DNA of 64,000 nucleotides. It comes from Verrucomicrobiia bacterium. GTDB lineage: Bacteria; Verrucomicrobiota; Verrucomicrobiia; Limisphaerales; UBA11358. Position numbers and translations under genes: made by a program. How positions within the stretch are numbered: position 1 is the stretch's first letter; each line of letters starts with the position of its first letter. The DNA lies in assembly GCA_035546095.1 (NCBI GenBank), contig DASZXB010000017.1:24-64023 (forward strand), written 5' to 3'. Below are positions 2,952 to 60,969 of this stretch, in pieces. Below the pieces are notes generated by a model, which was given only the letters and a program-made list of their open reading frames with translations, was not told the DNA's origin and made no database searches.

Positions 2952-3085
2952 AAATTTGTGAACGACAAATTTGTTGTCGTGGAGCAACGTTCGGAACATA
3001 AATTTGTCAGCCGACATTCTTTTAGCAAAATTTTGTGGACAAATTTTTTCGTCAGGAACAAAGTCGAATTTGTGAAAGGCAAAAT

Positions 3086-3343
3086 ATGCAAATTCCAACG
3101 TCACCAAGATTATTGAAAATTGCTCTATTTAGTCTAGTGCCAGCAGAGTATTTGAGCATGTTGTTTTCGCGATTGAGTCCAAATATTTACGGTGATGTTC
3201 CTCTTACTTGTGCCATTTTGATTCCGACAGCCGCGTTGGTCAGTTTGCTTTCATGGCCTACTCATCGGGTGGTTGCTATGCTTGGTTTATTGCCATCCTT
3301 TTTGTTGTTCTTTGCTTATACACTACCGACCTTACGAAGTTAA
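3086..3343 (+). CDS. hypothetical small membrane protein
   Basis: ORF in an AT-richer gap with two or three hydrophobic segments and no recognisable motif. The start is uncertain (GTG 3035 or ATG 3086). Confidence 0.3.
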   Translation: MQIPTSPRLLKIALFSLVPAEYLSMLFSRLSPNIYGDVPLTCAILIPTAALVSLLSWPTHRVVAMLGLLPSFLLFFAYTLPTLRS

Positions 3344-4780
3344 TTTCCCTTTCACCCACGCTTTCGCTTCGCGTTTGGTTTTTAATTCGTCGGCGAGTTG
3401 CAGTTCGCGGATTTCGCGGAGCAGTTCGCCGAGCGTTTTGCCGGGTTTTATTCCGAGCGCAATCAAATCGTCGCCCGTCAGCAGCGGCGGGCGAATCGCG
3501 GGCTGATGTTTCAACGCTCCCGCCTGCACGACCAAAAATTCGTAGTGCTCCAGCGAATTGTGCGAGCCGAGGCAGTCCAATTTGTGCAATTCCAGTTCCA
3601 GCGGAAACGTCTCGCGCAGGAGCAGCCGCCGCAACGTTGCCTTCCGCATCTGCTTCACGTCCTTGAATTGCATATGATGTTTCACGCAGGCGACAATTTC
3701 TTCGGTCGGCTTTTTGGGAAAGCGTAGTCGCCGCAAAATTTGTCCCGCCATTTCCGCGCCAATTTTTTCGTGACCGTAAAAATGGATTGAGCCGGTCGCC
3801 AAATCCTTTTCCGCCGTCACCGGCTTGGCGATGTCGTGCAACAAAACCGCCCACGGCAACAGCGGATTGGCGCCCGGCGACAAATGCGCGAGCATCAATT
3901 TGATGTGATTGAACACGCTGCCTTCGGGATGAAAAACCGGCGATTGCTCGCAATCAATCGTCGCGGCGAGTTCGGGCAAAATCTGTTCCAGTAATTTGCT
4001 GTCGCGGAGCAAAACGAGACCGCGCGCGGCGGAAGAATTTTTCTTCCTCGCCCCGCCCAAGCGGGGAGAGGGTTGGGGTGAGGGGTTTTGAGTTTTGGAA
4101 ACATCGGCCTCCTCACCCCAGCCCTCTCCTCCAGCGGAGGAGAGGGAGAAGCCCGCGCTCGGAGGCGCGAATAATTTCAGCAACTCATCGCGAACCCGTT
4201 CCGCACTGATGAGTTTGATTTTCGGCGCGAGATTTTGAATTGCCGCAAATGTTTTCGGCTCGATTTCAAAATTCAACTGCGCGGCGAAACGGATTGCCCG
4301 CAGCATCCGCAAATGGTCTTCGCCAAAACGTTCTTCCGGTTCGCCAATCGTGCGAATGATTTTGGCGCGCAAATCGCGTTCGCCGCCGACCCAATCGTGG
4401 ATTTGCTTTGAAGTCGGGTCATAGAAAAGTCCGTTGACGGTGAAATCGCGGCGGAGTGTGTCGGCTTGCGCGCTGGCAAAATGAACGGTCGCAGGTCGGC
4501 GACCATCGCGGTAATCCGCTTCTGCGCGAAAGGTGGCGATTTGAAATTGCAGTTTGTTGACGATGACAACGACGACGCCAAATTTTTTGCCGACGGCAAT
4601 CGTTTTGGGAAACAATTTTTCGACCTGCTCCGGTTTGGCGTCCGTAGCGATGTCAAAATCGCCCGGCTCACGTCCGAGCAAAAAATCGCGCACGCAACCG
4701 CCGACCCAAAATGCGGAAAATCCTGCGGCTTGCAACCGTCGCACAATTTTTACCGCAATTTTTTTCATTTCTCGCCCCAA
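3332..4780 (-). CDS. cca: CCA-adding tRNA nucleotidyltransferase / poly(A) polymerase family with HD domain
   Basis: GGCVRDFLLG...DFDIAT nucleotidyltransferase motif and an LLHDIAKP HD motif. It contains an in-frame palindromic insert (see the repeat at 4051-4146). Confidence 0.85.
   Translation of the reverse strand: MGREMKKIAVKIVRRLQAAGFSAFWVGGCVRDFLLGREPGDFDIATDAKPEQVEKLFPKTIAVGKKFGVVVVIVNKLQFQIATFRAEADYRDGRRPATVHFASAQADTLRRDFTVNGLFYDPTSKQIHDWVGGERDLRAKIIRTIGEPEERFGEDHLRMLRAIRFAAQLNFEIEPKTFAAIQNLAPKIKLISAERVRDELLKLFAPPSAGFSLSSAGGEGWGEEADVSKTQNPSPQPSPRLGGARKKNSSAARGLVLLRDSKLLEQILPELAATIDCEQSPVFHPEGSVFNHIKLMLAHLSPGANPLLPWAVLLHDIAKPVTAEKDLATGSIHFYGHEKIGAEMAGQILRRLRFPKKPTEEIVACVKHHMQFKDVKQMRKATLRRLLLRETFPLELELHKLDCLGSHNSLEHYEFLVVQAGALKHQPAIRPPLLTGDDLIALGIKPGKTLGELLREIRELQLADELKTKREAKAWVKGKLTS
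4051..4146. repeat. palindromic mini-element inside cca (GEGWGEE...[11 protein letters not shown] family)
   Basis: The arms gcggggagagggttggggtgagggg (4061-4085) and cctcaccccagccctctcc (4111 onward) are inverted complements. There is also a perfect local hairpin ccctctcctcc-agc-ggaggagaggg (4122-4146). The same family occurs in ligA at 16504-16615. Confidence 0.85.
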
Positions 4781-5679
4781 ATGTTTTTCAGATGCGCGAT
4801 TCCGGTTTTGACGGCTTCGACGGGCAACACGGGACTCAATTCAAAAACCTTGATGTGCTCCGGCTTGACGAACGGTTTGAGCGCGGCGAAATCAATCATA
4901 CCGGCGCCGGGCGGGCAATGGTCTTGCGCGGGGAATTGCACGTCGTGAATGTGAAATCCGGCCAGACGCGGCGCGAGCGGCGCGAGAAATTCGCGATAGC
5001 GGATGAAGCCGAGATTGTCCTTGATTTGCGCGTGGCCGCAATCGTGCCAGTAGCCGACGTTCGGCGAGGAAAATTCGCACAGGAAATTTTCAAAATCGCC
5101 GTCGAGCGGAATTTCCTCGACGGCTTCGCGATTTTCGCAGCCGAGTTTGAGTCCGCGTTTTTCGGCTTCGGGCAAAATCCGGCGCAGCGTTTCTTTGGTG
5201 CGCGCGAAAAATTTTTCCTTTTTGGCCTCGCGCGATTTCTGCGCTTCAACGAGCAATTTTTCGTATTTCGGCGAATGACGTTCGCCGCGTTCGAGCAGGT
5301 CCTTCAATTTGCCGGTGTAATCCTTCAATTCGATGCTGCCGAGATGCAGCACGATGAGTTGGGCTTTGACGCGCGCGGCAAATTCAATCGTTTTGAGCGT
5401 GTGCTTGAGCGCGAGTTCGCGTTCCAGCGCGTCTTCGGCGGAAAATTCGTAAAGATTGGGCGACGGTTTTTCGACGCCCATCGGCAGCGGACAAAAATTG
5501 TGGACGGTGGAGATTTTGATTTCACCGGCGTCCACGGCGTCGAGGATGCCCGGCACGAGCGCGAGCCGGATGCCGTGGCTCAACTCGGCGTATTCAAAAC
5601 CGAGCGCGCGGATTTCGCGCAACATCGCGCGTCCGTCGGTGTGGCGCTGGGAATTCCAGCAGGTGGAAAATGAATACAT
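4765..5679 (-). CDS. sugar phosphate isomerase/epimerase (xylose isomerase-like TIM barrel) family protein
   Basis: 304-aa ORF whose N-terminus (YSFSTCWNS...GFEYAELSHG) and overall pattern are typical of AP-endonuclease-2/xylose-isomerase-like TIM barrels. Confidence 0.65.
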   Translation of the reverse strand: MYSFSTCWNSQRHTDGRAMLREIRALGFEYAELSHGIRLALVPGILDAVDAGEIKISTVHNFCPLPMGVEKPSPNLYEFSAEDALERELALKHTLKTIEFAARVKAQLIVLHLGSIELKDYTGKLKDLLERGERHSPKYEKLLVEAQKSREAKKEKFFARTKETLRRILPEAEKRGLKLGCENREAVEEIPLDGDFENFLCEFSSPNVGYWHDCGHAQIKDNLGFIRYREFLAPLAPRLAGFHIHDVQFPAQDHCPPGAGMIDFAALKPFVKPEHIKVFELSPVLPVEAVKTGIAHLKNIWGEK

Positions 5680-5685
5680 GGATTT

Positions 5686-5774
5686 CGTTGAAGCGTTAAA
5701 TCGTCACATCGTGAATCGTTGAATCGCAAAAACGAAGAATCGTTAAACCGCCGCACTGATGCAACGATTTAACG
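5686..5774. repeat. intergenic hairpin element (cgttgaagcg / cgttaaatcg family)
   Basis: 10-bp perfect inverted repeat cgttaaatcg (5694-5703) / cgatttaacg (5765-5774). The 10-mer cgttgaagcg at 5686 recurs at 30535 and as its complement at 30583. Confidence 0.7.
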
Positions 5775-8179: not shown

Positions 8180-9631
8180 ATGAATCACTTTGCTTTGCTC
8201 AAATGGTCGGGGAAATTTTCTTTTTCAATCCTGCTTTTTACCTTCGCTTTATCATTCGCGCAACTCGTGACAGCGCAGACACAGCCGGTTACGGTTTCTA
8301 TTTCAGACGAAAACAATGGCAAAGAATTGTCGCCACAATTCCTCGGTTTGAGTTTTGAATCGTCCGCGCTGATTCCCAAAGACGGTCACTATTATTTCGC
8401 GCCGCAAGACACGGTGATGGTCAACGCCTTCAAAACGCTCGGCATCAAAAGTCTGCGCGTCGGCGCGAACGCCGTGGACGACCCGCGCATTCCAGTGCCC
8501 GACACCAATGACATTGACCATTTGTTTGATTTCGCGCGCGCGGCGGGCGTAAAAGTCATTTATTCCTTCCGTCTGAAAAATGGCGACCCGATGAATTCCG
8601 CGCGGTTGGCCAGTTACATCGCCGCACACGACACCGACGCGCTCGATTGTTTTTCCATCGGCAACGAACCAAACTTTTATCTCAAAACATTCGACGCTTA
8701 TTTCGCGGAATGGAAGCCGCACTTCGACGCCATTTTGAAAGTTGTGCCGGACGCGCAATTTGACGGCGCGAGCGCCACCGGCCCTTACGCGCTCGGTTTG
8801 GCCAAAGCCGTTTTTGCCACCGGCCATCTGGCGATGGCGAGCGACCATTATTATTTTCTCGGTTCTGGTCGCGCGGGTGAAAAAGACCCTGCCGCCAATC
8901 GCGTCCGTTTTCTTTCCGACCGGCTTCACGGCGTTTATCAACGCGCTTACAACGAGACCGGCGCGAAACTCGCGGCGGAAGGCGTGCCTTATCGCATTGA
9001 CGAATTGAACAGTTGCTACAACGGTGGCGCGCACGGTTCGAGCGACACTTACGTTTCCGCGTTGTGGGCGCTGGACTGCATTCATTGGTGGGCGGCGCAT
9101 CACATTTTGGGCATGAACTTTCACACCGGCGAATCCGTTGGACGCGACGGTGGTTTCGGCGCGGCGAATTACGCGGCATTCGTGCATCTTCCAGCAAACC
9201 AAGGACTCGAAATGCGTCCGCAATCTTACGGCTATCTCGCTTTCAGCCAAAGTGCGCACGGCCAATCACTGCCGGTGAAAATCAATGCGAACCCGAAATT
9301 TGATTTCGACGCCTACGCCTATCGCGACCACGACAATTCCATTTACGTGACGTTCATCAACAAAAGTTTCGGCACGAACGCGCAACCGGCAAAAGTTTCA
9401 TTGCAACTGCCCGCGAACGTCAGCGCGCAAAGTTATCAGCGCATGGATTTGGCGCAAAAAGACAATGACATGGCCGCTCGAACCGGACTCACGCTCGGCG
9501 GCGCGCCGATTGACACGCAAGGAAATTGGAACGGCCAATGGCAACCAATTGCCGGAACAGACTCGGCGGACATAACCGTTGAAGTCGCGCCGCTTTCCGC
9601 CGCCATTTTGCATTTTGCGGCAATGAAATGA
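8180..9631 (+). CDS. secreted glycoside-hydrolase-like protein (clan GH-A TIM-barrel type)
   Basis: Signal peptide, then an LGLSFE...LRVGANAVD N-terminal barrel pattern and an IGNEPNFY motif (the NEP acid/base motif of clan GH-A). The exact GH family cannot be assigned by eye. Confidence 0.6.
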   Translation: MNHFALLKWSGKFSFSILLFTFALSFAQLVTAQTQPVTVSISDENNGKELSPQFLGLSFESSALIPKDGHYYFAPQDTVMVNAFKTLGIKSLRVGANAVDDPRIPVPDTNDIDHLFDFARAAGVKVIYSFRLKNGDPMNSARLASYIAAHDTDALDCFSIGNEPNFYLKTFDAYFAEWKPHFDAILKVVPDAQFDGASATGPYALGLAKAVFATGHLAMASDHYYFLGSGRAGEKDPAANRVRFLSDRLHGVYQRAYNETGAKLAAEGVPYRIDELNSCYNGGAHGSSDTYVSALWALDCIHWWAAHHILGMNFHTGESVGRDGGFGAANYAAFVHLPANQGLEMRPQSYGYLAFSQSAHGQSLPVKINANPKFDFDAYAYRDHDNSIYVTFINKSFGTNAQPAKVSLQLPANVSAQSYQRMDLAQKDNDMAARTGLTLGGAPIDTQGNWNGQWQPIAGTDSADITVEVAPLSAAILHFAAMK

Positions 9632-11930: not shown

Positions 11931-13225
11931 CGCTGCCGTGGCGGGCGCAAATCCGGCGGCGGCGCGTTCGTGTTCGACGGCGTATTTTCTTGTTTGAACG
12001 CCGAGCGCAATAACCAATGCCGTTTCAATCCCTGGATGAAATCGTCCGTGTCCACGACGATTTTCGAGATGCTGCTCAACATATTGGTGTTGGTTTGCAC
12101 CTGCACATTGAGATTGCTCGTGAGGTCGGCCAAATGAACCAGAATGGCGGTCAGGTTCGTGTCCGTATTGGCGAGCATCGAATTTGCGTTGGTCAAAATG
12201 CCTTGCAATTGTTCGTTGCCGTTCGTGCCAATCGCCCAATTGACCATGCCGCCCGGCTCGCGCAATTGCGCGCTGATGGCGGTGAAATTCGTCAGCATCG
12301 GCTGCGCGGAAACAATGGTCTGATTCAAATTGGAAGTGGCGAGCGCGGCGTTGGCGAGCGTGGCGTTGGCGTTGTCCAGCACACCGGCGATTTTGTTCGT
12401 GAGCGCCAGAATTCCCGGCAAGGCTTTTTGGACTTGCGTAATCATCGCCTGCGCCTGGTCGGTGACGGACGGCGATTCCGCGACGACCAATTGATAGGCG
12501 TTGGTTTCGCCGTTGTCGCGAGGATTGTAGTGTTCGTAACGCTGCAATTGTTTGTTCCACATCGCCGTGATGTGAGAACGGTTTTGTTTCAAGTTGATGG
12601 CCGGAATGGAATCCAGTTTCATTTCCGCCATTTGTTCCACGTTGGACGGCCACAAGGCCGTGGTATAGACGCGAAAAACGAGATTAGAATTGTCGTCGTA
12701 AAGATTTTCCGCCAGCCGCCAGTCTTGCGGATCGGAAAGTTCTTTGGCTTCGTCCAGCGAAAGAGTTTCCAACGGGTGCGTGAGATAGGCGTTGCAGCCG
12801 TTCGTGCCGCGCGTGATTTCCAGCGAACGATTGCCGAGCAAATCCGAATTCACCTTGACCAACGAGCCTTCGCTCCAGATGTATCCGTAATACGGGTCTT
12901 TTTGCGGCGTGACCTGATTGACGAAAAATTCAATCCGCACATTATACTTGGAGCGCGGCGGCATGGCGGTGATGCCGCTGATTTGGCCGACTTGAAATCC
13001 CATCAACATCACCGGCGCGCCGACGGTCAAACCCGCCGCGTTGTTGACGTAAGTGTAAAATCTCGCTTTCACCAGAAACCAGCCGCTGGTTCGCGCCTTG
13101 TTGTAAAGGTAATAGCCAAAGCCGAACAGCAGCAACGCCGTGGCGAAAAACACAAACCAGCCGACGAGGCGTTCCATGCGGTTCAAGCGCGTGCGCAGTT
13201 GCGGAGTCAAATCTTGCAGTGGCAT
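11918..13225 (-). CDS. MlaD/MCE-domain protein with long C-terminal helical extension
   Basis: N-terminal TM helix followed by an MCE core (GLTVGAPVMLMGFQVGQISGI), then an N/T/L-rich helical repeat region. Confidence 0.75.
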   Translation of the reverse strand: MPLQDLTPQLRTRLNRMERLVGWFVFFATALLLFGFGYYLYNKARTSGWFLVKARFYTYVNNAAGLTVGAPVMLMGFQVGQISGITAMPPRSKYNVRIEFFVNQVTPQKDPYYGYIWSEGSLVKVNSDLLGNRSLEITRGTNGCNAYLTHPLETLSLDEAKELSDPQDWRLAENLYDDNSNLVFRVYTTALWPSNVEQMAEMKLDSIPAINLKQNRSHITAMWNKQLQRYEHYNPRDNGETNAYQLVVAESPSVTDQAQAMITQVQKALPGILALTNKIAGVLDNANATLANAALATSNLNQTIVSAQPMLTNFTAISAQLREPGGMVNWAIGTNGNEQLQGILTNANSMLANTDTNLTAILVHLADLTSNLNVQVQTNTNMLSSISKIVVDTDDFIQGLKRHWLLRSAFKQENTPSNTNAPPPDLRPPRQRQAG

Positions 13226-13252
13226 AAAGTTAATGATTAAAGCGTTGAGACG

Positions 13253-25717: not shown

Positions 25718-25862
25718 ACACAGATGGACACGGATTAACACGGATAAAAATCAAAAACCTTTTGACGCGAATTCCGCCAATTAACGCAAATGAAAATCAA
25801 TTAGCGAAAATTTGCGAAATTCGCGTCAAACAAAATCCGTGTTCATCTGTGTTTATCCGTGG
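25708..25862. repeat. nested palindromic element between kdsB and pyrG
   Basis: The outer 29-nt arms (25708-25736 and 25834-25862) are complementary at 28 of 29 positions. The inner 13-bp arms tttgacgcgaatt (25761-25773) / aattcgcgtcaaa (25818-25830) are perfect. Confidence 0.85.
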
Positions 25863-46882: not shown

Positions 46883-47020
46883 AAATTCAGACGGCCAGTA
46901 TAATTTACACGCGCCATTTCACAAGCATGGAACATTTTTCAAAATTTGTCTTGGCAAAAAAAAAATTCAGCGTAAAACAGAACCGTTCTTTGAAACGGCA
47001 AAAGAAATTTTGCCACTGAT

Positions 47021-47154
47021 GCAATCAAATGTCAGGGAATCCGGTGAAAATCCGGAGCGGTTGCGCCACTGTAACGGCTACAAATTCCAAAGCCACCGGC
47101 AACGGGAAGGCGGAATGAGGTTGGAAGCCGAAGTCAGGATACCGGTTTGATTGT
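47021..47154 (+). promoter_or_regulatory. cobalamin (B12) riboswitch aptamer
   Basis: Contains AGGGAAUCCGGUGAAAAUCCGGAGCGGUUGCGCCACUGUAACGG, GCCACCGG...GGGAAGGC and AGUCAGGAUACCGG, matching the conserved cobalamin-riboswitch core including the B12 box. A 7-bp P1 helix aatcaaa (47023-47029) / tttgatt (47146-47152) closes it. Confidence 0.9.
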
Positions 47155-47240
47155 GCTCGTCGCTGCGAAAGCAGCAACTTCTCCGCAAAGAGAAGGATGA
47201 GGCCAGCCGGTCAAACTGTTTTTGGCCGGATTCCTGATTT

Positions 47241-47285
47241 GCCTTCATTTCTTGATTTGTGGAAGTGAAGGCGTTTTTGTTTTTT
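47241..47285 (+). terminator. intrinsic terminator (probable riboswitch expression platform)
   Basis: Stem gccttcatttct / ggaagtgaaggc (12 bp with two G-U pairs), an 8-nt loop, followed by gTTTTTgTTTTTT. Confidence 0.6.
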
Positions 47286-47360
47286 GACACGAATTGCACG
47301 AATTTTCACGAATGTTGAAAAATCACGCGACCATTCGTGTTAATTCGTGAAATTCGTGTC
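47286..47360. repeat. 29-nt-arm palindromic element (triple CACGAAT motif) in the operon leader
   Basis: gacacgaattgcacgaattttcacgaatg (47286-47314) and cattcgtgttaattcgtgaaattcgtgtc (47332-47360) are near-perfect inverted complements. Confidence 0.85.
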
Positions 47361-47440
47361 TTCATTTCCCTCTGGTCTCTCAACCAAAAAACCGTTCGCG
47401 TAAAAAAATTTTGCGCGGATAAAAATTGAAAGACTGGAAA

Positions 47441-49618
47441 ATGAAAAAAGTTCGTTTCGCGCTGGCAATTGCCGGCCTGTTTCTTGTTTGCAAATCGGCG
47501 TCGGCCATTTCACTGGATGACATTCAACTCTGGACTGGCTCCGGCACCAATCGCGCCGCACTCGTCATTGAATGGAGCGTGCCGGAATCTTTGACCAATT
47601 CTTCCGTGCCAGTTCCGATCGCGGACAAAACGCTTGTTTGGGGCTATCGGTTCAATGGCGCAGCCACGGGAACGCAAATGTTGCAAGCAATTTTGGCGGC
47701 AGACCCAAAACTTTATGTCGCTGAAGAATTCGGCGATTTCATCGTCGCCGCCGGTTACAATCTCAACGGCAACGGCAACATTGGCATCACCGACGGCACA
47801 ACCACCAATTTTTTTGCTGGTGGCCTTTTGTCTGACCCAACGGTAAATGTGGATTCCGTGCAGGCGATTAACTCCGGCGATTTATTTTGGAGCGGATTGT
47901 ATGGCCCGAATTGGGAGACGTGGCGTGAGACAAATGAACTCGGTGGCTTTTACACATCACCGAATCGCGGCACGAATGCATATTGGACGACGACAGACAC
48001 GGAATACTTCGGCACCGGTTTTCACGGTCAATGGCAATATTCAGGAGGCATAGACGATGCGCCACTTGCCGATGGTTCATGGATTGGTTTAAGCGTCGCC
48101 GCCGGTGAATTTGAACCAGACGCCAACGCGCCTTACAATGCGTACAAGCACGCGCCGGTTTCGCCTGATGGCACTTATGTCGCCTACGTTGCCAACACCA
48201 ACGATTTCGCCGTTCAAGTCCTCAGCTACACCAATCTTTACTACTTGAATGCTCTCGGCCAAACATTCTACTCCAACGCGCTCGCAGTGCTGGGCCAGCC
48301 GACGTTGAAATTCAAAAATGGCGCCAGTTTCTTTGGCGATGGAACAATCCACCGCGTCAAAATTGTCGAGCCGGCATTTTGGACCGACCCCACAGGAACG
48401 AATGACGTCATCACCAGAATAAACGTCGGCGGCCAAATTACCGTCAACATGGGACGCAAAATTTACCATAATCCAAACAATCCTTATGGCATTGATTTCA
48501 ATGTCTTTGGCAATTCATTTTATCAGGCAACGGGAGGGGCAGATCCGAAAACCGGCTTGATCAGTGATTCGACGGATGAAGGTAATGTTACGATCAATGG
48601 AAGTGCCGGGACTTACGGTCATACCACTATTGTTTCCGTCAGTCAGGACGGCACGAATTGGCTCACCTATCCTTACGTACCAGTTATTGTCCCGGACAAC
48701 GCCTACCGCTGGGACGACACCAATCATTGCTGGACGGATGAGCAAATGAATGAAACCAAACCGCTCAACCCATCGCTCAATTTTCCGGCTGGCACGACGG
48801 TTGCCAACGCGTTGGATCAATTTGTCGGCGCATATGGCGGCACAGGTTATAGCTTGCAAACATTCAACCTTCCGTGGATTCAATACATCCGCATCTGGGC
48901 GGGAGCGACCACTAACGATGCGAATTCTTCCGACTACACAGTCATTGATTCGATTGGCGCGGTCAATCCGGTCACCGTTGGCGACGCACTTTCCATCACG
49001 CCGGGCAATTTGGTTTCAGGCATCACTAACCTGAATTTTCAAAACCCGGCTGATTTGTGCCAGACTTTGATTTCGCTTAATTTTGATTCCGTCAGCACGA
49101 ATGCAAAAATCAGCACCGTCAGCCTGCATGAATTTTCTTCGTTCGCGCCGGTCATCGGCAACGTCTCCAGCGCGTATCAACTTCAAACTCGTTCGCTTGC
49201 GGATACAAATGCCGTGACACTTCAAGCCGACGTTGGCCTGCGCGTCGGTGACAATTATTCCGGCAACGGAAATGATTTGCGCGTTTTTCAATGGTGTGGC
49301 ACGAATTGGATTTCACAGCCGTTCACGTTTAATTCAATGAACAATGAAGTTGTCGTCGCGGGCGTGACGAATTTTTCCGCGTTTGTCGTGTCGCAAATCG
49401 TTCCGCCAAGTTTGGGCATTCAAACTTTGACAAATGGTTTCGCGTTTCAATTCGCGCCCGTTGCAAACGCTCAAAACATTTTGGAACGCTCGACCGACCT
49501 CGTGAATTGGACGCCAATTGCCACAAACACGCCGGCTGATTCGCAATCCATCACGTTGCAGGACACGAATGTGCCGTCAGACAAGGCATTTTATCGCGTG
49601 CTTTTGAACGTTCCGTGA
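47441..49618 (+). CDS. large secreted hypothetical protein, first gene of the B12-riboswitch operon
   Basis: 725 aa from ATG 47441 with a signal peptide ([22 protein letters not shown]). It has a C-terminal ...[11 protein letters not shown]...FYRVLLNVP module. No enzymatic motif recognised. Confidence 0.7.
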
Positions 49619-49680
49619 AATGCCGCGCAAAAAATTCGCAATGGAAATTCGCCGGCGCGTTCGCACGATGCGGACGCGCC

Positions 49681-50412
49681 GTGCGAAATTCCGCGTTCAC
49701 GTTGATTGAATTGCTCGTCGTCATTGCCATCATCGCGATTTTGGCGGCGATGCTTTTGCCCGCATTGGCTCAGGCCAAAGCAAGGGCGAAGAGCCTTCAA
49801 TGTTTGAGTAATTTGCGACAAATGGTCATCGCCGCGCACGTTTATGTGGATGACAACGCCGATTTCTATCCCATTGCCTACTGGGGTGACGAGGACTCGG
49901 CCAATTCTTACTGCTGGGATTTGAGCGTGATTTATGACGACAACGGCAACGCCACCGTCCAGCCAGGCATTTTATGGGAAAGTCAGGGCAACGCCCAAAT
50001 CCAGCAATGCCCATCATTTGACGGCAGCGCCAACTGGGCCGACAATCCTTACACCGGCTATAATTATAACACCAGCTATATCGGCCATGGCCTGGATGAA
50101 GCGATTCAACTACCTGCGAAAACTGCGGACGTTCATCATCCGGCCAAAACGGTGATTTTTGGCGACGGCCAATATGCGGGGGGCGCGAATAAATTTATGC
50201 GCGCTCCCTTTCCGAATCCCGGCGACGTGTATTTCGACGGGCGCAATGCCGGCACGCAAGGATTTCGCCATCGAAATCGCAGCAACGCTGCTTTTTGCGA
50301 TGGTCACGCCGAATCGTTGCGCGATTGCTACACGAATAATTCTGAAAATTCCCTCGTCGCACCCGGCACTGGATTTCTTTCGGTTAGTAATTCCATGTAT
50401 GACCTTGAATAA
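49681..50412 (+). CDS. prepilin-type N-terminal domain / H-X9-DG (DUF1559) pseudopilin-like protein
   Basis: (M)[28 protein letters not shown] methylation-type leader from GTG 49681, with an alternative GTG at 49615 overlapping the upstream stop. The C-terminal [12 protein letters not shown] is an exact H-X9-DG motif. Confidence 0.8.
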
Positions 50413-50418
50413 GACATT

Positions 50419-50943
50419 ATGAACATACCAAGATTTTTATTTTTGACCGGAATAATTTTTGTCGCAGCTTTGTCGCGATTGATTCCGCATCCGCCGAATT
50501 TCAGTCCCATCGCCGCGCTCGCCTTGTTCGGCGGCGCGCAATTTTCCTGCAAATGGATGGCTTTTATCGTGCCGTTGGCCGCCATGTTTTTGAGCGATTT
50601 GATTTTGGGATTGCACGCGTTGATTCCAGTCATTTATGGCTGCTTTGCGTTGATCGTCTGCCTCGGTTTTTGGCTGCGCCGAAATCAAAATATCTGCCGC
50701 ATCGGCGGCGCGGCAATAATTGGCGCGATTTTGTTTTTCGTCGTGACCAATTTCGGGGTTTGGGCAATCGGCTCATACTATCCGAAGACCGGAAACGGAC
50801 TACTCACTTGTTACATCGAAGCTATTCCATTTTTCTGGAACACGTTGACCAGCGATTTATTTTATTCCGCAATCCTTTTCGGCGCATTGCGCGCGGCGGA
50901 ATGGCGCTGGCCGATTATGCGACCGGCTTTGGCCGCAAACTGA
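50419..50943 (+). CDS. small polytopic membrane protein (resembles DUF6580 putative transporter family)
   Basis: 174 aa with about 5-6 TM helices. The N-terminal SRLIPHPPNFSPIAALALFGGA motif is, as I recall, characteristic of DUF6580-type putative vitamin transporters. This is unverified. Confidence 0.65.
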   Translation: MNIPRFLFLTGIIFVAALSRLIPHPPNFSPIAALALFGGAQFSCKWMAFIVPLAAMFLSDLILGLHALIPVIYGCFALIVCLGFWLRRNQNICRIGGAAIIGAILFFVVTNFGVWAIGSYYPKTGNGLLTCYIEAIPFFWNTLTSDLFYSAILFGALRAAEWRWPIMRPALAAN

Positions 50944-50944
50944 A

Positions 50945-51328
50945 ATGGAGTCCTCATCGGCAGAGCAGATTGATGCCGGACGATGCCCGCTCTGTGGCAA
51001 TCCGAACCATTGCCAGCTTTGCACCGTCGCCGCCTACAAAGGTTCGTGCTGGTGCGCAAAAGTGGAAATTCCCGATGCGCTGCTCGCGCAAGTGCCGCCC
51101 GATTTGCAGAGCAAATCCTGCATCTGCCGCGATTGCGTCACGGAATTTCATCGCGCAAAAAATTCCAGCGCACCGCCAAAAATTTTGCCGGGCGATTTTT
51201 ATTTCGACAACGGCTTGATGGTTTTCACGGCGGAATATCACTTGCGACGCGGTTATTGTTGCGGCAGTAGCTGTCGCCATTGTCCGTTTGAAGAAAAATC
51301 CGTCGCGCTGGTATCGGCGACCCAATGA
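50945..51328 (+). CDS. cysteine-rich CWC-type / DUF5522-like fusion protein
   Basis: N-terminal CPLCGNPNHCQLC...CWC...CICRDC, and C-terminal FTAEYHLRRGYCCGSSCRHCPF. Confidence 0.65.
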   Translation: MESSSAEQIDAGRCPLCGNPNHCQLCTVAAYKGSCWCAKVEIPDALLAQVPPDLQSKSCICRDCVTEFHRAKNSSAPPKILPGDFYFDNGLMVFTAEYHLRRGYCCGSSCRHCPFEEKSVALVSATQ

Positions 51329-52089
51329 GCGCGATTCCGCAACGCATCGTTTGTCTCTCTGCCGAAGTCGCCGATTGGTTTTGGCGGCTCGGCGCGTGGG
51401 AAAATGTCGCGGGTGTCACGGTATTTTTTGAACAAGCGCCCGATGCGCCGCCCAAACCGCGCGTCAGCGGATTCAGTTCCGCCAATTTCGAGCAAATCGA
51501 GAAATTAAATCCCGATTTGGTCGTCACGTTTTCCGACGTGCAAACACAATTGGCAACCAAATTGGTTCAACGCGGTTTTTCGGTTTTTTCCACCAATCAA
51601 CGCACGTTGGAAGAAATTGAAAACACGCTCGGATTGCTCGCGCGCATGGTAAATCGCGGACACGATGGCGAAAGATTGCTGGATGAATTTCGCACGCGAC
51701 TGGCACCGGTGAAAAACGTTTCGCGCCGTCCGCGCATTTATTTTGAGGAATGGAATGAGCCGCTGATTTCCGGCATTGGCTGGGTGAGCGAATTGATTGA
51801 ACGCGCCGGCGGCGAAGACATTTTCCCCGAATTGAAATCAAAACGTGCGGCGTTGGAGCGTGTTGTTTCGCCCGGACAAGTTTGCACGGCCAATCCTGAA
51901 ATCATTTTTGCCTCGTGGTGCGGCAAACCGGTGAACATTTCTGAAATCGTCTCGCGCCTCGGTTGGGAAAAATTATTCGCCGTTCGCCATCAACGCATCT
52001 ATGAAATTTCCGGCGACGACATTTTGCAGCCCGGCTTTCGATTGATTTATGGTTTTGAATTGATGAAAAAAGTGATTGGACATTGTTGA
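51325..52089 (+). CDS. cobalamin-binding protein (BtuF-like, periplasmic-binding-protein type 2 fold) without signal peptide
   Basis: RIVCLSAEVADW...LNPDLVVTFSD...YFEEWNEPLISGIGWVSELIERAGG pattern typical of BtuF-like B12-binding proteins. The protein begins MSAIPQRIVCL with no hydrophobic leader. Confidence 0.7.
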   Translation: MSAIPQRIVCLSAEVADWFWRLGAWENVAGVTVFFEQAPDAPPKPRVSGFSSANFEQIEKLNPDLVVTFSDVQTQLATKLVQRGFSVFSTNQRTLEEIENTLGLLARMVNRGHDGERLLDEFRTRLAPVKNVSRRPRIYFEEWNEPLISGIGWVSELIERAGGEDIFPELKSKRAALERVVSPGQVCTANPEIIFASWCGKPVNISEIVSRLGWEKLFAVRHQRIYEISGDDILQPGFRLIYGFELMKKVIGHC

Positions 52090-52104
52090 TTAAAAGTTCC
52101 GAAA

Positions 52105-52632
52105 ATGTCGCAAATTATGTTGTCGCGAACGGTCATCATTGGCAACAGCGGTTCGGGCAAAAGTTATTTGGCGCAATCGCTGTCGGCAATTCATTCAATT
52201 CCCGTTGTCCATCTCGACGGAATTTTTTGGATGCCCGGCGGATTCAACGAGAAGAGGCCAGCAAACGAAGTGAGAATTGAAATAGAACGGAAACGAAAAG
52301 ACGATTCGTGGATTGTCGAAGGTGTTTTTGGTGAACTGGCTGAATTGTTTTTGCCGCGAGCGGATTGTCTTATATTTTTAGATTTGGATTGGACTGCCTG
52401 CTGGTCGGCACTTGTGGCGCGCGGTTCTGAAAGTTCAAAGCAATTGCCAGCGGCCAATGCAGAGGGAAATTTTAAGAAATTGCTCCTTTGGGCGGAACAA
52501 TATTGGACTAGGACAAATTCATGCTCTCAATCAAACCACCTTCGGCTGTTTTCCAATTTTACCGGCGTCAAATTCAGATTTATCCGCCGCTCTGAAATTG
52601 ACGAATTTCTCAGGCAACAAGAAAGAAGTTAA
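52105..52632 (+). CDS. P-loop NTPase / adenylate-kinase-like small kinase
   Basis: IIGNSGSGKSYLAQSL Walker A in a 175-aa protein. Its size and pattern are typical of AAA-type small-molecule or nucleotide kinases. Confidence 0.65.
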   Translation: MSQIMLSRTVIIGNSGSGKSYLAQSLSAIHSIPVVHLDGIFWMPGGFNEKRPANEVRIEIERKRKDDSWIVEGVFGELAELFLPRADCLIFLDLDWTACWSALVARGSESSKQLPAANAEGNFKKLLLWAEQYWTRTNSCSQSNHLRLFSNFTGVKFRFIRRSEIDEFLRQQERS

Positions 52633-57123: not shown

Positions 57124-57375
57124 TTGTTAAATGTTTCGGCGCAGGAGCATAACAAATCTTGTACGCCACTTCAACGCTTTCAAATAAAAAGCCGGAACCA
57201 TTGCTCCGGCTGCTGACAAACTTGTCACTTTCAAATTGACATTTTGTGACGCTTGAACATTTCACAAGGGTTCGATTGATGGAGATAGAATTCTACATGT
57301 ATTTTTGATGGATATTCCTTGATGGATTATTTGTTATTGCATAACAATGATTCTAATTTAAGCAGGAGCGAATTT

Positions 57376-60300
57376 ATGAAAAACACAATCGCTTTCATGG
57401 TGAAATTGGTTGTTTCAATGATTCTGTGGAGCTTCACTGCATTTTCTCAAACAGCATCCTATGGTGTGGTTTCTACATCCTCGCTTCCTCCGCAATTTGT
57501 GTATGCCGTGGCCGAGCGCGGTCCAAATTATTGTATTTGGTCCACAACCAATCATGAAACAGATGCCAAGGGCCAAGGTGTGCCTGTCGTGCATAAATAT
57601 ACTGAACTAGCCACAGGCTTAAATCATTTAGTCAATGGCCAATGGATTCCCAGCAGTGAGGAGATTGATATTTTGCCCGACGGAACAGCGGCGGCGACCA
57701 ATGGACAACATCAGGTGTATTTTCCAGCAGATATTTACGATGGAGAAATCCGAATGGTGACGCCTGACGGTAAAACATTACAAAGCCAGCCGTTGGGATT
57801 AAGTTATGACGATGGCAGCAACACAGTGTTGATTGCCATATTGACCAATTCGATTGGTGAATTGATTTCTTCCAATCAGGTGATTTATCCCAATGCGTTT
57901 GCGGGTATGGACGCGGATTTACGTTACACCTACACGAAGGCGGGATTCGAGCAGGACATCATCTTGCGGGAACAGCCGCCGACGCCGCAATCGTTTGGTC
58001 TGAACCCTGACGCGACACGATTGGAAGTGTTGACGGAGTTCTTCAATCCACCCCGGCCAACAGTCAAGGCAACTGCTGTTTCGACCGCCGCAGGCAATCT
58101 TGAGGATGACAATTTGAGTTTTGGGACGATGCGGATGCGGCGGGGGAAGGCGTTTCTGTTGGGAACGAACACCCCTTCTGCCAGTGTCAACAAACAATGG
58201 CTTACGTTGGACAACAGACAGTTCCTAGTGGAAGAAGTGCCGGTCGTTTCCATCGTCAATGAACTGTCACAATTGCCGCAGAGCGCATCCACTCAATCCA
58301 ATCCTCCATTGAATGTGATTTCGAGCACGAGATTATTGCCGCAACAACGTCTGGCCAAAACCAAAGGCAAAAAGACATTCATTGCAAAGGCTTCGCTGCC
58401 GGACAATGGATTGGTGTTGGATTACAACACGATTAATAGCAGTTTAACGAATTACACATTTCGGGGCGACACAACATATTATATTAGTGGAAATATTTAT
58501 CTATATGGAACCAATATCTTTGAGGGCGGGACGGTGATAAAATACAACGGCACCTCGATTACTCTTGACTATCCATCCTCTATCCAAACACAGACTTCTG
58601 CTTATCGCCCTGTGATATTTACGAGCGGCTCGGATTCCAGCGTGGGTGAAATCACGCCGGGCGGATATAGCGGCGGACACCCGGCGCTGGCGTATTATGG
58701 AACAGTAACATATGCTGAAAGCGGTTCGCTAAAGTTAAACAATTTCCGGATTTACCGCGCCGATGAAGCGATTTATGTCAGCGGCAATCTCAATGCCACT
58801 CTCGAGAATGGTCAGTTTTGTGATTGTGTAATCGGGTTTGAAGCGGATGGATTCAACGTATACGCACAAATTGAAAATTGCCTGTTTCAAGAGCCCGGCT
58901 CGATGGCCCTGTGCCTGAATCAGGCAAACGTAACGATGGAAAATGTCACGGTGGATGGCAATGGCGATACCTCTTTATCACAGGCCGTGCCCTATAGCGA
59001 TGCTCCATATACTATTATGATGACCAATTGTTTAATCGGCAACGTTTGGACACTTTCATGGGGATCGTCTGACGCCATAATCGGAGGCGATTACAATGGA
59101 TTTTATGACACCGACGTTTCGCCTTTTGGCGTTCATTACATAGATTTTCCCGATAATGGCCCGTATCAAACCGCAGGCGCCGGCAATTATTATTTGGGGG
59201 ACAATTCATTCCGCTATTTTGTTGGCACGACAGCTATTGACCCAGCATTGCTGGCCTCCCTACGGACGAAGACCGTTTATCCCCCCGACACAAACTCGTA
59301 TATCAACACAATCATTTCGACGCCAACTACCATTACTCCTTCGCCTCAAGTTCTTTTTGATGAACCTAATGCTATCGCCCTTGGCTATCATTATGACCGC
59401 ATTGATTACCTTGTTGATAATCTGACTGTTTCCAACACGGTTTTAAGTTTGGCGAATGGCGTTGTGTTGGCCAGTTGTAATGACATCGGTATCCAGGTTC
59501 AAGGAAGTGGAACCATTGTTTCAACCGGAACGCCGGCACTGCCAAATTGGCTTGTCCGGTATCAATCTGTGCAGGAGGAACCCATACTTTTGGGAGGCGC
59601 CGACCCTTCACTGGGCGCAACAATTTGCGCGACAAACACCGGGGCGTCCGGCTCATTTCAATTCACGCATTTTTCAGTTCCCGCCGGCGGCGGCTATGAT
59701 TTTTACGACACCGGCAATTCAGTATTCAGCAACCTTGTGCTGCAAGAATGCGAGCTTTACGGCGGAGCAAATGATTTCAGCGGAGGAAGCTCCGCCAGCA
59801 GCGTAATTCTACAGAACAACCTCTTTGATTGTTCGTCCATCTACGCCTCCAACACTTCCGCCTCGGCAAGTCTTGCCATCTCCAACAACCTTTTTTGGGG
59901 GACAACCGCAACCATTCACCAGCCGGCCGATGGGGTTTGGTATGCTTACAACAATGACTTTGATTCAACTGCCATTACAAATTCAACTTTGAACAATGGT
60001 TACAATGCCTATCTGAATTGCAGCGGTTATTTGTCTTCCACGAATGCCACCGACATTTTTTCTGATGACTCATTGGCCTATGTCGCCGGGCCTTTGGGCG
60101 ATTTTTACCAGCCGGACGACAGCCCGCTCATCAATGCCGGCAGCACAACGGCGAACCATGTGGGTTTATGCGCTTATACTGTTCTGACTGATACGGTTAA
60201 CGGAATGGAGATTGAGGAAACGAATTCCATTGTGGATATTGGTTACCACCATGTCGCCGCCACTCCTGATGACAATTTAGTGGTCAGCACCAACATCACG

Positions 60301-60969
60301 CCGTTGCAAATGGCGCAGATGTTGATGGGAACAGGTGTTACAATTGCTAATGCGACTTACACGGGAACAAATGCGGCTCGCGGCATATTTGCAGGAGGCT
60401 TTGCTTGCAACCTCCCAATAGATAGCGGCGTAATCTTCGATTCAGGCAACATTGCTGATGTCATAGGCCCGCCAAGTATCACAAACCCGGATGGCGAATT
60501 TGGAAATCTAGGTGGTGACACAGATTTAGATAATCTGATTGGTATTGATAGTTCGGATGGATGGGATCCTGCGGTGTTGGAATTCGACATTATTTCATCC
60601 ACGAATTCAATTTCATTTCAATACTTCTTCACGTCTGAAGAATACACCCAATATGTTGGTTCCGTATACAATGATGTCTGTGGAATTTTTATTGATGGAA
60701 CAAATATAGCCGTTGTTCCGGGCACCTCGCAGTGTGTGTGTCTAAATAATGTTAGTCCTGATACTAATGCCAAATACTATGTGAATAATCCTTTCGGAGC
60801 AAACATTGTCAATATGCAATATACCGGTTTAACAACCTTGTTCACGGCGCAGGTGACTATTTCTACGAACGTGGTTCATCATATCAAAATTGCTATCGAA
60901 GATGTTGGCGACGATGCCAACGATTCAGCTATCTTTCTGAAAGCAGCGTCATCGTGTAACTGCAATTAA
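57376..60969 (+). CDS. large secreted protein with beta-helix-like repeats and C-terminal choice-of-anchor-L-type domain, no C-terminal sorting signal
   Basis: Signal peptide from ATG 57376 and NNLF-type beta-helix repeats. The C-terminus FQYFFTSEEYTQYVGSVYNDVCGIFIDGTNIAVVPG...YTGLTTLFTAQV...HHIKIAIEDVGDDANDSAIFLKA matches the choice-of-anchor-L pattern as I remember it. The protein ends 8 residues later (ASSCNCN). Confidence 0.75.
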   Translation: MKNTIAFMVKLVVSMILWSFTAFSQTASYGVVSTSSLPPQFVYAVAERGPNYCIWSTTNHETDAKGQGVPVVHKYTELATGLNHLVNGQWIPSSEEIDILPDGTAAATNGQHQVYFPADIYDGEIRMVTPDGKTLQSQPLGLSYDDGSNTVLIAILTNSIGELISSNQVIYPNAFAGMDADLRYTYTKAGFEQDIILREQPPTPQSFGLNPDATRLEVLTEFFNPPRPTVKATAVSTAAGNLEDDNLSFGTMRMRRGKAFLLGTNTPSASVNKQWLTLDNRQFLVEEVPVVSIVNELSQLPQSASTQSNPPLNVISSTRLLPQQRLAKTKGKKTFIAKASLPDNGLVLDYNTINSSLTNYTFRGDTTYYISGNIYLYGTNIFEGGTVIKYNGTSITLDYPSSIQTQTSAYRPVIFTSGSDSSVGEITPGGYSGGHPALAYYGTVTYAESGSLKLNNFRIYRADEAIYVSGNLNATLENGQFCDCVIGFEADGFNVYAQIENCLFQEPGSMALCLNQANVTMENVTVDGNGDTSLSQAVPYSDAPYTIMMTNCLIGNVWTLSWGSSDAIIGGDYNGFYDTDVSPFGVHYIDFPDNGPYQTAGAGNYYLGDNSFRYFVGTTAIDPALLASLRTKTVYPPDTNSYINTIISTPTTITPSPQVLFDEPNAIALGYHYDRIDYLVDNLTVSNTVLSLANGVVLASCNDIGIQVQGSGTIVSTGTPALPNWLVRYQSVQEEPILLGGADPSLGATICATNTGASGSFQFTHFSVPAGGGYDFYDTGNSVFSNLVLQECELYGGANDFSGGSSASSVILQNNLFDCSSIYASNTSASASLAISNNLFWGTTATIHQPADGVWYAYNNDFDSTAITNSTLNNGYNAYLNCSGYLSSTNATDIFSDDSLAYVAGPLGDFYQPDDSPLINAGSTTANHVGLCAYTVLTDTVNGMEIEETNSIVDIGYHHVAATPDDNLVVSTNITPLQMAQMLMGTGVTIANATYTGTNAARGIFAGGFACNLPIDSGVIFDSGNIADVIGPPSITNPDGEFGNLGGDTDLDNLIGIDSSDGWDPAVLEFDIISSTNSISFQYFFTSEEYTQYVGSVYNDVCGIFIDGTNIAVVPGTSQCVCLNNVSPDTNAKYYVNNPFGANIVNMQYTGLTTLFTAQVTISTNVVHHIKIAIEDVGDDANDSAIFLKAASSCNCN

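Follow-up and report, generated by a model that had tools for sequence, protein, structure and literature searches.

A cobalamin riboswitch in a Verrucomicrobiia bacterium precedes a putative corrinoid acquisition operon with a predicted BtuM-fold membrane protein

A 64,000-nucleotide (nt) stretch of DNA from a Verrucomicrobiia bacterium (Limisphaerales; UBA11358; NCBI GenBank assembly GCA_035546095.1, contig DASZXB010000017.1, positions 24 to 64,023 of the forward strand), hereafter the window, carries a cobalamin (vitamin B12) riboswitch and, downstream of it on the plus strand, six open reading frames (ORFs) separated by gaps of at most 15 nt or overlapping by 4 nt. A first-pass annotation, made from the letters alone, had proposed the riboswitch, the six co-directional ORFs (47441-52632) and a label for each gene; the ORF positions agree with it, as do the labels in Pfam and NCBIfam runs. 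The features, in window coordinates and with lengths in base pairs (bp), nt or amino acids (aa), are as follows:

47010-47164, plus strand: cobalamin riboswitch aptamer (Rfam RF00174), with an 8-bp P1, the B12 box and a P6 extension
47165-47285, plus strand: expression platform of three small hairpins, an invariant CTTCTCCGCAAAGAGAAGGATGAGGCCAG segment and a terminator hairpin (47240-47273) with a T-run, from scan and alignment
47286-47360, unstranded: inverted repeat with 29-nt arms of TTnCACGAAT units (arms 90% complementary, 17-nt loop)
47441-49618, plus strand: 725-aa Sec-secreted all-beta protein, no Pfam or NCBIfam match
49615-50412, plus strand: 265-aa H-X9-DG / DUF1559-type pseudopilin-like protein with N_methyl and H-X9-DG motifs, overlapping the first ORF by 4 nt
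50419-50943, plus strand: 174-aa DUF6580 membrane protein after a 6-nt gap (PF20221, 198.8 bits)
50945-51328, plus strand: 127-aa Cys_rich_CWC and DUF5522 protein after a 1-nt gap (PF14375, 50 bits; PF17653, 69 bits)
51325-52089, plus strand: 254-aa BtuF-like Peripla_BP_2 protein, 4-nt overlap (PF01497, 103 bits)
52105-52632, plus strand: 175-aa P-loop NTPase (adenylate-kinase / FlaR-like) after a 15-nt gap, sub-threshold matches

The aptamer matches RF00174 across the full model (positions 1-189) with 66.3 bits (E = 3.7e-14) against a gathering score of 31.5 and is the sole Rfam match in the window, which bears out the proposed riboswitch. Its core reads GGGAA...GGUGAAAAUCC, the GCCACUG B12 box, GGGAAGGC and AGUCAGGAUACC, closed by a P1 helix, CAATCAAA / TTTGATTG, that comes to 8 bp on direct reading rather than the 7 bp first reported; the core columns are unchanged in seven compared instances. 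The claimed stem-loop and T-run were found as a terminator-like hairpin followed by TTTTTGTTTT, the best such site of the region in a terminator scan. Aptamer, three small hairpins, invariant CTTCTCCGCAAAGAGAAGGATGAGGCCAG segment, terminator hairpin and U-run are kept in 27 of 29 aligned relatives, and in a 12-sequence subset RNAalifold predicts 11 pairs in the terminator stem, three of them with compensatory changes and always with a U-run after them. This architecture fits a transcriptional OFF switch, in which cobalamin bound to the aptamer would let the downstream terminator form and stop transcription, and the genes would be transcribed when B12 is scarce.

About 155 nt lie between the terminator and the first ATG, and they hold the inverted repeat, which has three TTnCACGAAT units in each arm and occurs in the window and in one related locus (L081). 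It is missing at the same place in two others (L085, L002), and because these keep everything else, the repeat appears to be a lineage-specific insertion outside the core regulatory mechanism. The CACGAAT palindrome was accordingly rejected as a second regulatory element of the operon, the two relatives without it having retained both riboswitch and genes. It resembles a small palindromic insertion element, and a related tandem motif is present at window positions 25729-25745.

Domain scans of the six ORFs (Pfam, NCBIfam) found no TonB-dependent receptor, BtuC, BtuD or energy-coupling factor (ECF) A or T gene, in agreement with the earlier statement that canonical B12 transporters are absent from the operon. 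We consider it likely that this is a B12-repressed corrinoid acquisition operon of two modules, which together would provide capture outside the cytoplasm, import by the DUF6580 protein and trapping in the cytoplasm. From fold, domain fusion and genomic context we infer each binding and transport activity in this scheme and the order of hand-over.

The 174-aa membrane protein belongs to a family that spans more than 6,500 clusters of homologs at 90% identity across many phyla, carries the NCBI name 'DUF6580 family putative transport protein', and is described by no paper in the searchable literature under DUF6580 or PF20221, so for this family the first-pass word 'undescribed' holds. An AlphaFold (AF2) model built on 23 sequences has six helices (mean predicted local distance difference test, pLDDT, 82), and its top Foldseek match in the PDB is 8c7p, BtuM with cyanocobalamin (probability 1.00, query TM-score, TMq, 0.58), followed by the ECF S-components FolT, ThiT, RibU and PanT. 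With its predicted S-component fold and BtuM as best structural match, the protein does not stand outside known transport mechanisms. Since sequence and profile searches miss BtuM, DUF6580 would be a separate family with the same fold.

BtuM of Thiobacillus denitrificans (6FFV / 8C7P) transports B12, has the S-component fold and comes from an organism that lacks an ECF module; directional uptake by trapping has been put forward for it (PMC6072759). Both proteins are small six-helix inner-membrane proteins of this fold (predicted for DUF6580), both have BtuB-type receptors encoded with them and no ABC ATPase genes close by (PMC6072759; three exceptions among 80 DUF6580 loci), and the trapping model is applicable to both. 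They differ in that no sequence homology is detectable between them, in that the cobalt-ligating Cys80 of BtuM (loop 3) has no conserved DUF6580 counterpart, in family size (131 jackhmmer hits, mostly Proteobacteria, for BtuM; PMC6072759), and in that DUF6580 often has a cytoplasmic BtuF-like partner. A BtuM-like conserved cysteine ligand was looked for and rejected: C131 is located elsewhere, at the start of helix 6, and is present in only 58 of 81 sequences, and no conserved cysteine is found near loop 3. Residues H24, N27, D60, Y121, G127 and P137 are nearly invariant and lie on the outer side by helix counting, the conservation of H24 and N27 being biased by their place in the locus search pattern. 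H24, in loop 1, could be a ligand candidate.

The genomic context of DUF6580 was surveyed by scanning one genome per species with two motif patterns and analysing the best-scoring 80 of at least 598 matches, the set to which all counts per 80 refer. These loci span Verrucomicrobia, Planctomycetes, Acidobacteria, Bacteroidota, Ignavibacteria, Rhodothermales, several Proteobacteria and others. With a covariance model built from seven riboswitch cores, a same-strand cobalamin riboswitch was detected 150-4200 nt upstream of DUF6580 in 45/80 loci; an Rfam check upheld 7 hits in an initial batch and 10 out of the 11 weakest, giving a conservative count of 44, and about half of the 29 loci without a riboswitch hit offer under 3.7 kb of sequence on the upstream side. 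Because a typical bacterial genome has few cobalamin riboswitches, the association appears to be far above chance. A same-strand TonB-dependent receptor is present in 41/80 loci and is the usual gene between riboswitch and DUF6580; for two of the three such receptors tested, the NCBIfam model that fits best is that of the vitamin B12 receptor. Many operons of Ignavibacteria and Bacteroidota consist of riboswitch, receptor and DUF6580 only. BtuG-type DUF5074 propellers occur in five loci (four on the same strand) and a gene for DUF4465, a B12-binding domain (PMC13398666), in one, that of the Pirellulales locus L014. An ABC-ATPase-like ORF lies within 5 kb in just three loci.

This context would match the pattern expected of an inner-membrane corrinoid importer that acts downstream of BtuB and has no ATPase of its own. 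It also removes one element of the original proposal, which had tied the route to the envelope of the Planctomycetes-Verrucomicrobia-Chlamydiae (PVC) group: DUF6580 and ordinary BtuB-like TonB receptors share B12-riboswitch operons in Ignavibacteria, Bacteroidota, Acidobacteria, Proteobacteria and others, and the Verrucomicrobia-specific part of the operon is only the secreted protein and pseudopilin pair. In five alphaproteobacterial loci (L033, 7788-7938, minus strand; L025, L041, L074, L080) the riboswitch abuts DUF6580 on the opposite strand and faces a divergent TonB-receptor gene, so that DUF6580 stands beside the riboswitch and not behind it. Upstream of the Pirellulales B12 operon (L014, 168-213) there is an Acido-Lenti-1 small RNA (RF01687, 44.2 bits).

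The same fold allows another reading, that DUF6580 is an ordinary S-component docking on a shared EcfAA'T module encoded elsewhere (group II, like ECF-CbrT of Lactobacillus delbrueckii) and not a stand-alone BtuM-like transporter. ECF-CbrT and other S-components share with DUF6580 the fold of the membrane substrate-binding subunit and, for ECF-CbrT, the predicted substrate; the model also matches FolT, ThiT, RibU and PanT; members score sub-threshold against the Pfam S-component profiles ECF_trnsprt (3/23 members, best E 0.04) and ECF-ribofla_trS (one, E 0.024); and the genes of group II S-components commonly lie at a distance from the ECF module. The neighbourhoods argue the other way, since no EcfA, EcfA' or EcfT gene lies in the operon or near other DUF6580 genes, save the three loci with an ABC-ATPase-like ORF. 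DUF6580 is moreover common in Gram-negative phyla and usually stands with a TonB receptor, as has been reported for BtuM, which occurs in organisms lacking ECF modules (PMC6072759), and a cytoplasmic BtuF-like partner is foreign to ECF systems. We therefore think docking on a shared module unlikely, and stand-alone import by DUF6580 is the reading carried forward here.

That partner is the fifth gene product. Its best PDB match is 5ysc, 'Vitamin B12-binding protein' (4.6e-16); E. coli BtuF is matched as well (about 6e-08), and the NCBIfam cutoff for the BtuF equivalog is not reached (35 vs 234 bits). The ORF starts 7 residues ahead of the Peripla_BP_2 domain and no in-frame upstream start is possible; a BtuF-like protein is adjacent to DUF6580 in 10/80 loci, and all ten of these homologs, from other phyla, likewise lack a signal peptide (e.g. 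M..RIVSLLPSATE). With no room for a signal peptide, the protein is most probably cytoplasmic and not a periplasmic BtuF in the functional sense. Of the label 'BtuF-like binding protein' the fold is thus upheld (PF01497 and the 5ysc match) and a periplasmic role is not. Compared with E. coli BtuBFCD, the operon shares cobalamin riboswitch control and a protein of the BtuF fold class (Peripla_BP_2); it differs in having no BtuB, BtuC or BtuD, and its BtuF-like protein, lacking a signal peptide, cannot serve as the periplasmic shuttle. In the two-module scheme, DUF6580 (module B, found in many phyla) would bind the corrinoid on the outer side of the inner membrane and pass it through, and the BtuF-like protein would bind it in the cytoplasm, giving the transport its direction by trapping, as proposed for BtuM (PMC6072759).

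The Cys-rich CWC/DUF5522 protein, also without a signal peptide, is encoded in the related loci L081, L083 and L085, in about 33 of the 79 metagenomic loci described below and in L004, L012, L023 and L030, and its gene adjoins DUF6580 in proteobacterial and acidobacterial loci. A 'cysteine-rich CWC protein' is also encoded inside the Sulfurospirillum cobamide biosynthesis cluster (PMC7755780). This protein is repeatedly linked to corrinoid genes and may assist some handling step; no description of DUF5522 was found in the literature searched. A further neighbour is a Dph6-like ATP pyrophosphatase (Diphthami_syn_2, PF01902), which directly adjoins DUF6580 on the same strand in 20/80 loci (L012 7283-7981, L014 6693-7457, L034 7267-7956, L073 6094-7083 and 16 further loci), usually within a B12-riboswitch operon. 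As Dph6 enzymes amidate a carboxylate, this neighbour suggests an unrecognised corrinoid-modifying or repair step.

Such neighbours could also mean that the operon handles something other than complete cobamides, namely cobinamide or another precursor, the lower ligand, or cobalt. It is known that genes for cobalt transport and for salvage can also be under cobalamin-riboswitch control, and both the Dph6-like gene and the CWC protein of a biosynthesis cluster hint at corrinoid modification beyond uptake. The partners, however, are of corrinoid type: two of the three tested receptors fit the B12-receptor model best, BtuG-type and DUF4465 binders occur in DUF6580 operons, the best solved relative of the BtuF-like protein is a B12-binding protein, and Pfam scans of the operon and flanking ORFs found no cobalt-transporter or biosynthesis genes in operon or window. 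A substrate other than complete cobamides is accordingly very unlikely in our view.

The sixth gene gave only sub-threshold P-loop / FlaR-like matches in Pfam and NCBIfam. It is missing from L081, where the BtuF-like gene abuts glmM, from L083 and L085, and from all 79 metagenomic loci; because these relatives lack it, the P-loop gene is accessory and outside the conserved cassette, in the scheme a probable passenger. A role as the cassette's cobalamin-related kinase was rejected on the same absence from all relatives examined, and an AriA-like label from PADLOC was set aside as a weak, generic P-loop match.

The first gene encodes a 725-aa protein with a Sec signal peptide, an N-terminal domain of about 140 aa (N-domain, residues ~24-165), a middle domain (~270-510) and C-terminal beta-sandwich domains; a lipobox cysteine is not conserved in the family. 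No Pfam match was found even at E 10, and no NCBIfam or PDB sequence match. Its 272 detectable homologs are all unnamed, and those with a named source are mostly from Verrucomicrobia. A metagenome scan gave 79 loci of the secreted protein, in 64 of which a riboswitch lies ~230-400 nt upstream of the gene; the other 15 hold less than 350 nt of upstream sequence, so that the riboswitch is present in 64/64 loci holding at least 350 nt. The genes that follow include DUF6580 in about 12 loci and the BtuF-like gene in 5, the H-X9-DG pseudopilin gene comes next in nearly all 79, and many loci are two-gene operons of riboswitch, secreted protein and pseudopilin only.

Residues 24-275, searched against 1.84 billion representatives, gave 480 matches, and the first ~140 residues proved to be a domain found alone, in tandem or at the N terminus of large proteins. 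Among 34 distant matches scanned as a set, 15 carry a type IX secretion system (T9SS) sorting tail and 10 a DUF5074 domain; of nine N-domain proteins scanned individually, seven have full-length DUF5074. These DUF5074 proteins match the solved structures of BtuG1, BtuG2 and BtuG3, the PDB codes of which were checked in the literature (PMC10404256). The fusion would link the N-domain to surface B12 capture; that the N-domain itself binds B12 does not follow from it, and its profile has no solved relative by sequence among the PDB sequences. Two other identities for the 725-aa protein were tried and rejected, a divergent DUF4465 (BtuJ-type) binder, for which hhalign gave a probability of 0.3%, and an outer-membrane barrel replacing BtuB, which the modular variants of the family and the lack of a C-terminal aromatic residue speak against.

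Variants of the secreted protein are of several kinds. Proteins of ~940-960 aa with a duplicated N-terminal ~165-aa domain occur in L001 (343-3165) and as P0121, P0122, P0126, P0130 and P0141, and L140-L159 hold short variants of ~320-395 aa (lengths from the coordinates of a crude ORF caller) that consist mainly of the N-domain, with CWC and a more distant pilin (~31-35% identity) encoded behind them. In a Pedosphaera genome (L003, 5552-7285) the first gene after the riboswitch encodes a 577-aa protein without the N-domain, which shares with the 725-aa protein only the middle domain (hhalign probability 97.7%). As this is all that is shared, the middle domain is a second riboswitch-linked module.

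The pseudopilin-like protein has an N_methyl segment (PF07963, 30.8 bits; TIGR02532, 28 bits) and matches solved pilins in the N-terminal helix only. H219-x9-D229-G230 can be read directly and is invariant in six orthologs, and TIGR04294 scores 18.6 against a cutoff of 19. Gly is usual at pilin position -1; residue 27, before the pilin Phe(+1), is Ala in four of the five orthologs that cover the position, the window included. The protein may thus be poorly cut by prepilin peptidase and stay in the membrane as an anchored periplasmic protein. Pseudopilin genes accompany DUF6580 in the Pirellulales locus L014 (with the DUF4465 gene), in the Sedimentisphaerales locus L011 and in the Chthoniobacterales locus L031. 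DUF1559/H-X9-DG proteins have no described function in searchable papers.

These two proteins would make up module A, which is Verrucomicrobia-specific. The 725-aa protein, exported by Sec, would act outside the cytoplasm with the membrane-anchored pseudopilin-like protein, and the pair would capture corrinoids and hand them inward, a role like that of the surface binders BtuG, BtuH and BtuJ of Bacteroides (DUF5074 propeller, DUF4465 jelly-roll). Like these, the 725-aa protein is secreted and stands at the front of a B12-riboswitch operon; its N-domain occurs fused to BtuG-type propellers, and a DUF4465 gene holds the equivalent operon position in the Pirellulales locus. Unlike them, it has no DUF5074 domain and no DUF4465 sequence or profile similarity, carries a Sec signal peptide and not a conserved lipobox, and is paired with a pseudopilin-like protein, not a TonB-dependent receptor. 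We infer a corrinoid-capture protein. Least probable of the alternatives, by a little, is that the pair has nothing to do with B12 capture and forms a surface structure or a substitute for a B12-dependent process, on at low B12 like MetE: riboswitch-repressed B12-independent substitutes exist, most loci of the pair have no transporter gene nearby, and the 725-aa protein resembles no known B12 binder, yet many proteins join its N-domain to B12-binding propellers of the BtuG type, the pair is predicted to be co-transcribed with DUF6580, CWC and BtuF-like genes in several lineages, and in L014 the pseudopilin gene follows the riboswitch alongside the gene of the DUF4465 B12 binder.

Several points weigh against the two-module acquisition reading itself. 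The outer-membrane route for the corrinoid has no TonB receptor in the operon or, by tblastn, in the 64-kb window, where no Dph6-like, DUF4465 or DUF5074 gene was found either. The Foldseek E-value of the DUF6580-BtuM match is weak (0.089) despite the probability of 1.00 and TM-score of 0.58; phmmer and profile hmmsearch against all PDB sequences, with E up to 10, found no BtuM homology; and the family has no conserved cysteine throughout, position 131 being S or A where it is not C. The 80 DUF6580 loci, as the best-scoring of a larger set retrieved with two motif patterns, are not an unbiased sample. The AF2 model of the 725-aa protein is poor (pLDDT 63, all-beta) and gave only generic beta-sandwich matches in Foldseek, and hhalign detected no similarity to DUF4465. 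Most secreted-protein/pilin loci have no DUF6580 nearby, and the two modules need not act together.

The gene set is found repeatedly behind RF00174 aptamers, a point that the first-pass annotation had put forward for checking. Orthologous aptamers precede the same genes in L001, L002, L081, L083-L085 and the 64 informative metagenomic loci. The six genes are not a fixed unit. The closest syntenic relative, L081, has mdoG and ldh upstream and glmM downstream as in the window, and its cassette comprises riboswitch, a 726-aa protein, pilin, DUF6580, CWC and BtuF-like genes with no P-loop gene; L085 carries these five genes too, in other surroundings, the BtuF-like gene is missing from L083, and many relatives have the riboswitch, secreted protein and pseudopilin only. 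The proposed B12 acquisition or handling route therefore stands as regards a real riboswitch and a gene set repeatedly linked to it, and does not hold as a route restricted to a PVC-type envelope, built from a fixed set of six genes or served by a periplasmic BtuF.

A wider claim can be made more tentatively. DUF6580 may be a very large BtuM-like family of corrinoid importers in many phyla that supplies the inner-membrane transporter where BtuCD is missing, with a BtuF-fold partner in the cytoplasm, and in Verrucomicrobia capture by BtuB and BtuG may be supplemented or replaced by a secreted protein with a new corrinoid-binding domain, which an H-X9-DG pseudopilin would retain or pass on; we regard this as possible rather than probable. 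For most prokaryotes the B12-importing membrane proteins are reported as still unidentified, and BtuCDF has been predicted for no more than about half of the B12 auxotrophs (PMC6072759); no description of these families was found in the literature on novel or putative B12 transporters. With thousands of members, in many phyla, behind B12 riboswitches and beside BtuB-like receptors, DUF6580 is a strong candidate for part of this gap, and its candidate role is accessible to existing complementation and binding assays. If it is borne out, the BtuF-fold partner without a signal peptide would be a concrete example of trapping for S-component-fold transporters that lack an ECF module. The riboswitch-controlled pair offers a first functional handle on the H-X9-DG/DUF1559 proteins, which are abundant in Planctomycetes and Verrucomicrobia, and a capture role would give this hugely expanded class of PVC proteins its first assigned function. 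The secreted protein, for its part, points to a new domain fused to BtuG-type propellers. Prediction of B12 dependence and cross-feeding would improve, if the claim is true, for soil and peat communities, where such bacteria are common.

The genes flanking the operon in the window include housekeeping genes (ldh, mdoG/H, glmM, cdaA, folP, ligA, pyrG and sdhA). Among 20 large flanking ORFs scanned with Pfam there was no B12-related family and no BtuC or BtuD, and five of the 20 had no Pfam match at all. ORFs without a Pfam match (E <=1e-3 or 1e-5) lie on the plus strand at 57319-60969 (1216 aa), 8180-9631 (483 aa) and 12017-13240 (407 aa). The nearest named homologs are annotated as Verrucomicrobiae, Limisphaerales or Pedosphaera.

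Some of the related loci hold more than one riboswitch. L085 has two, 3.6 kb apart, one (842-1016) before metE, the gene for the B12-independent methionine synthase, with nrdA and nrdB flanking, and one (4668-4792) before the secreted protein/pilin/DUF6580 cassette. L104 has tandem riboswitches (2997-3125 and 5608-5736), one before a 725-aa homolog and the second before a 256-aa ORF, a pilin gene and an 825-aa ORF, and the same arrangement occurs in L135. The L001 and L002 contigs are labelled 'uncultured Bifidobacteriaceae bacterium' yet hold the verrucomicrobial cassette, including the H-X9-DG pseudopilin, at 60-79% protein identity to the window; the source records were probably binned or labelled wrongly.

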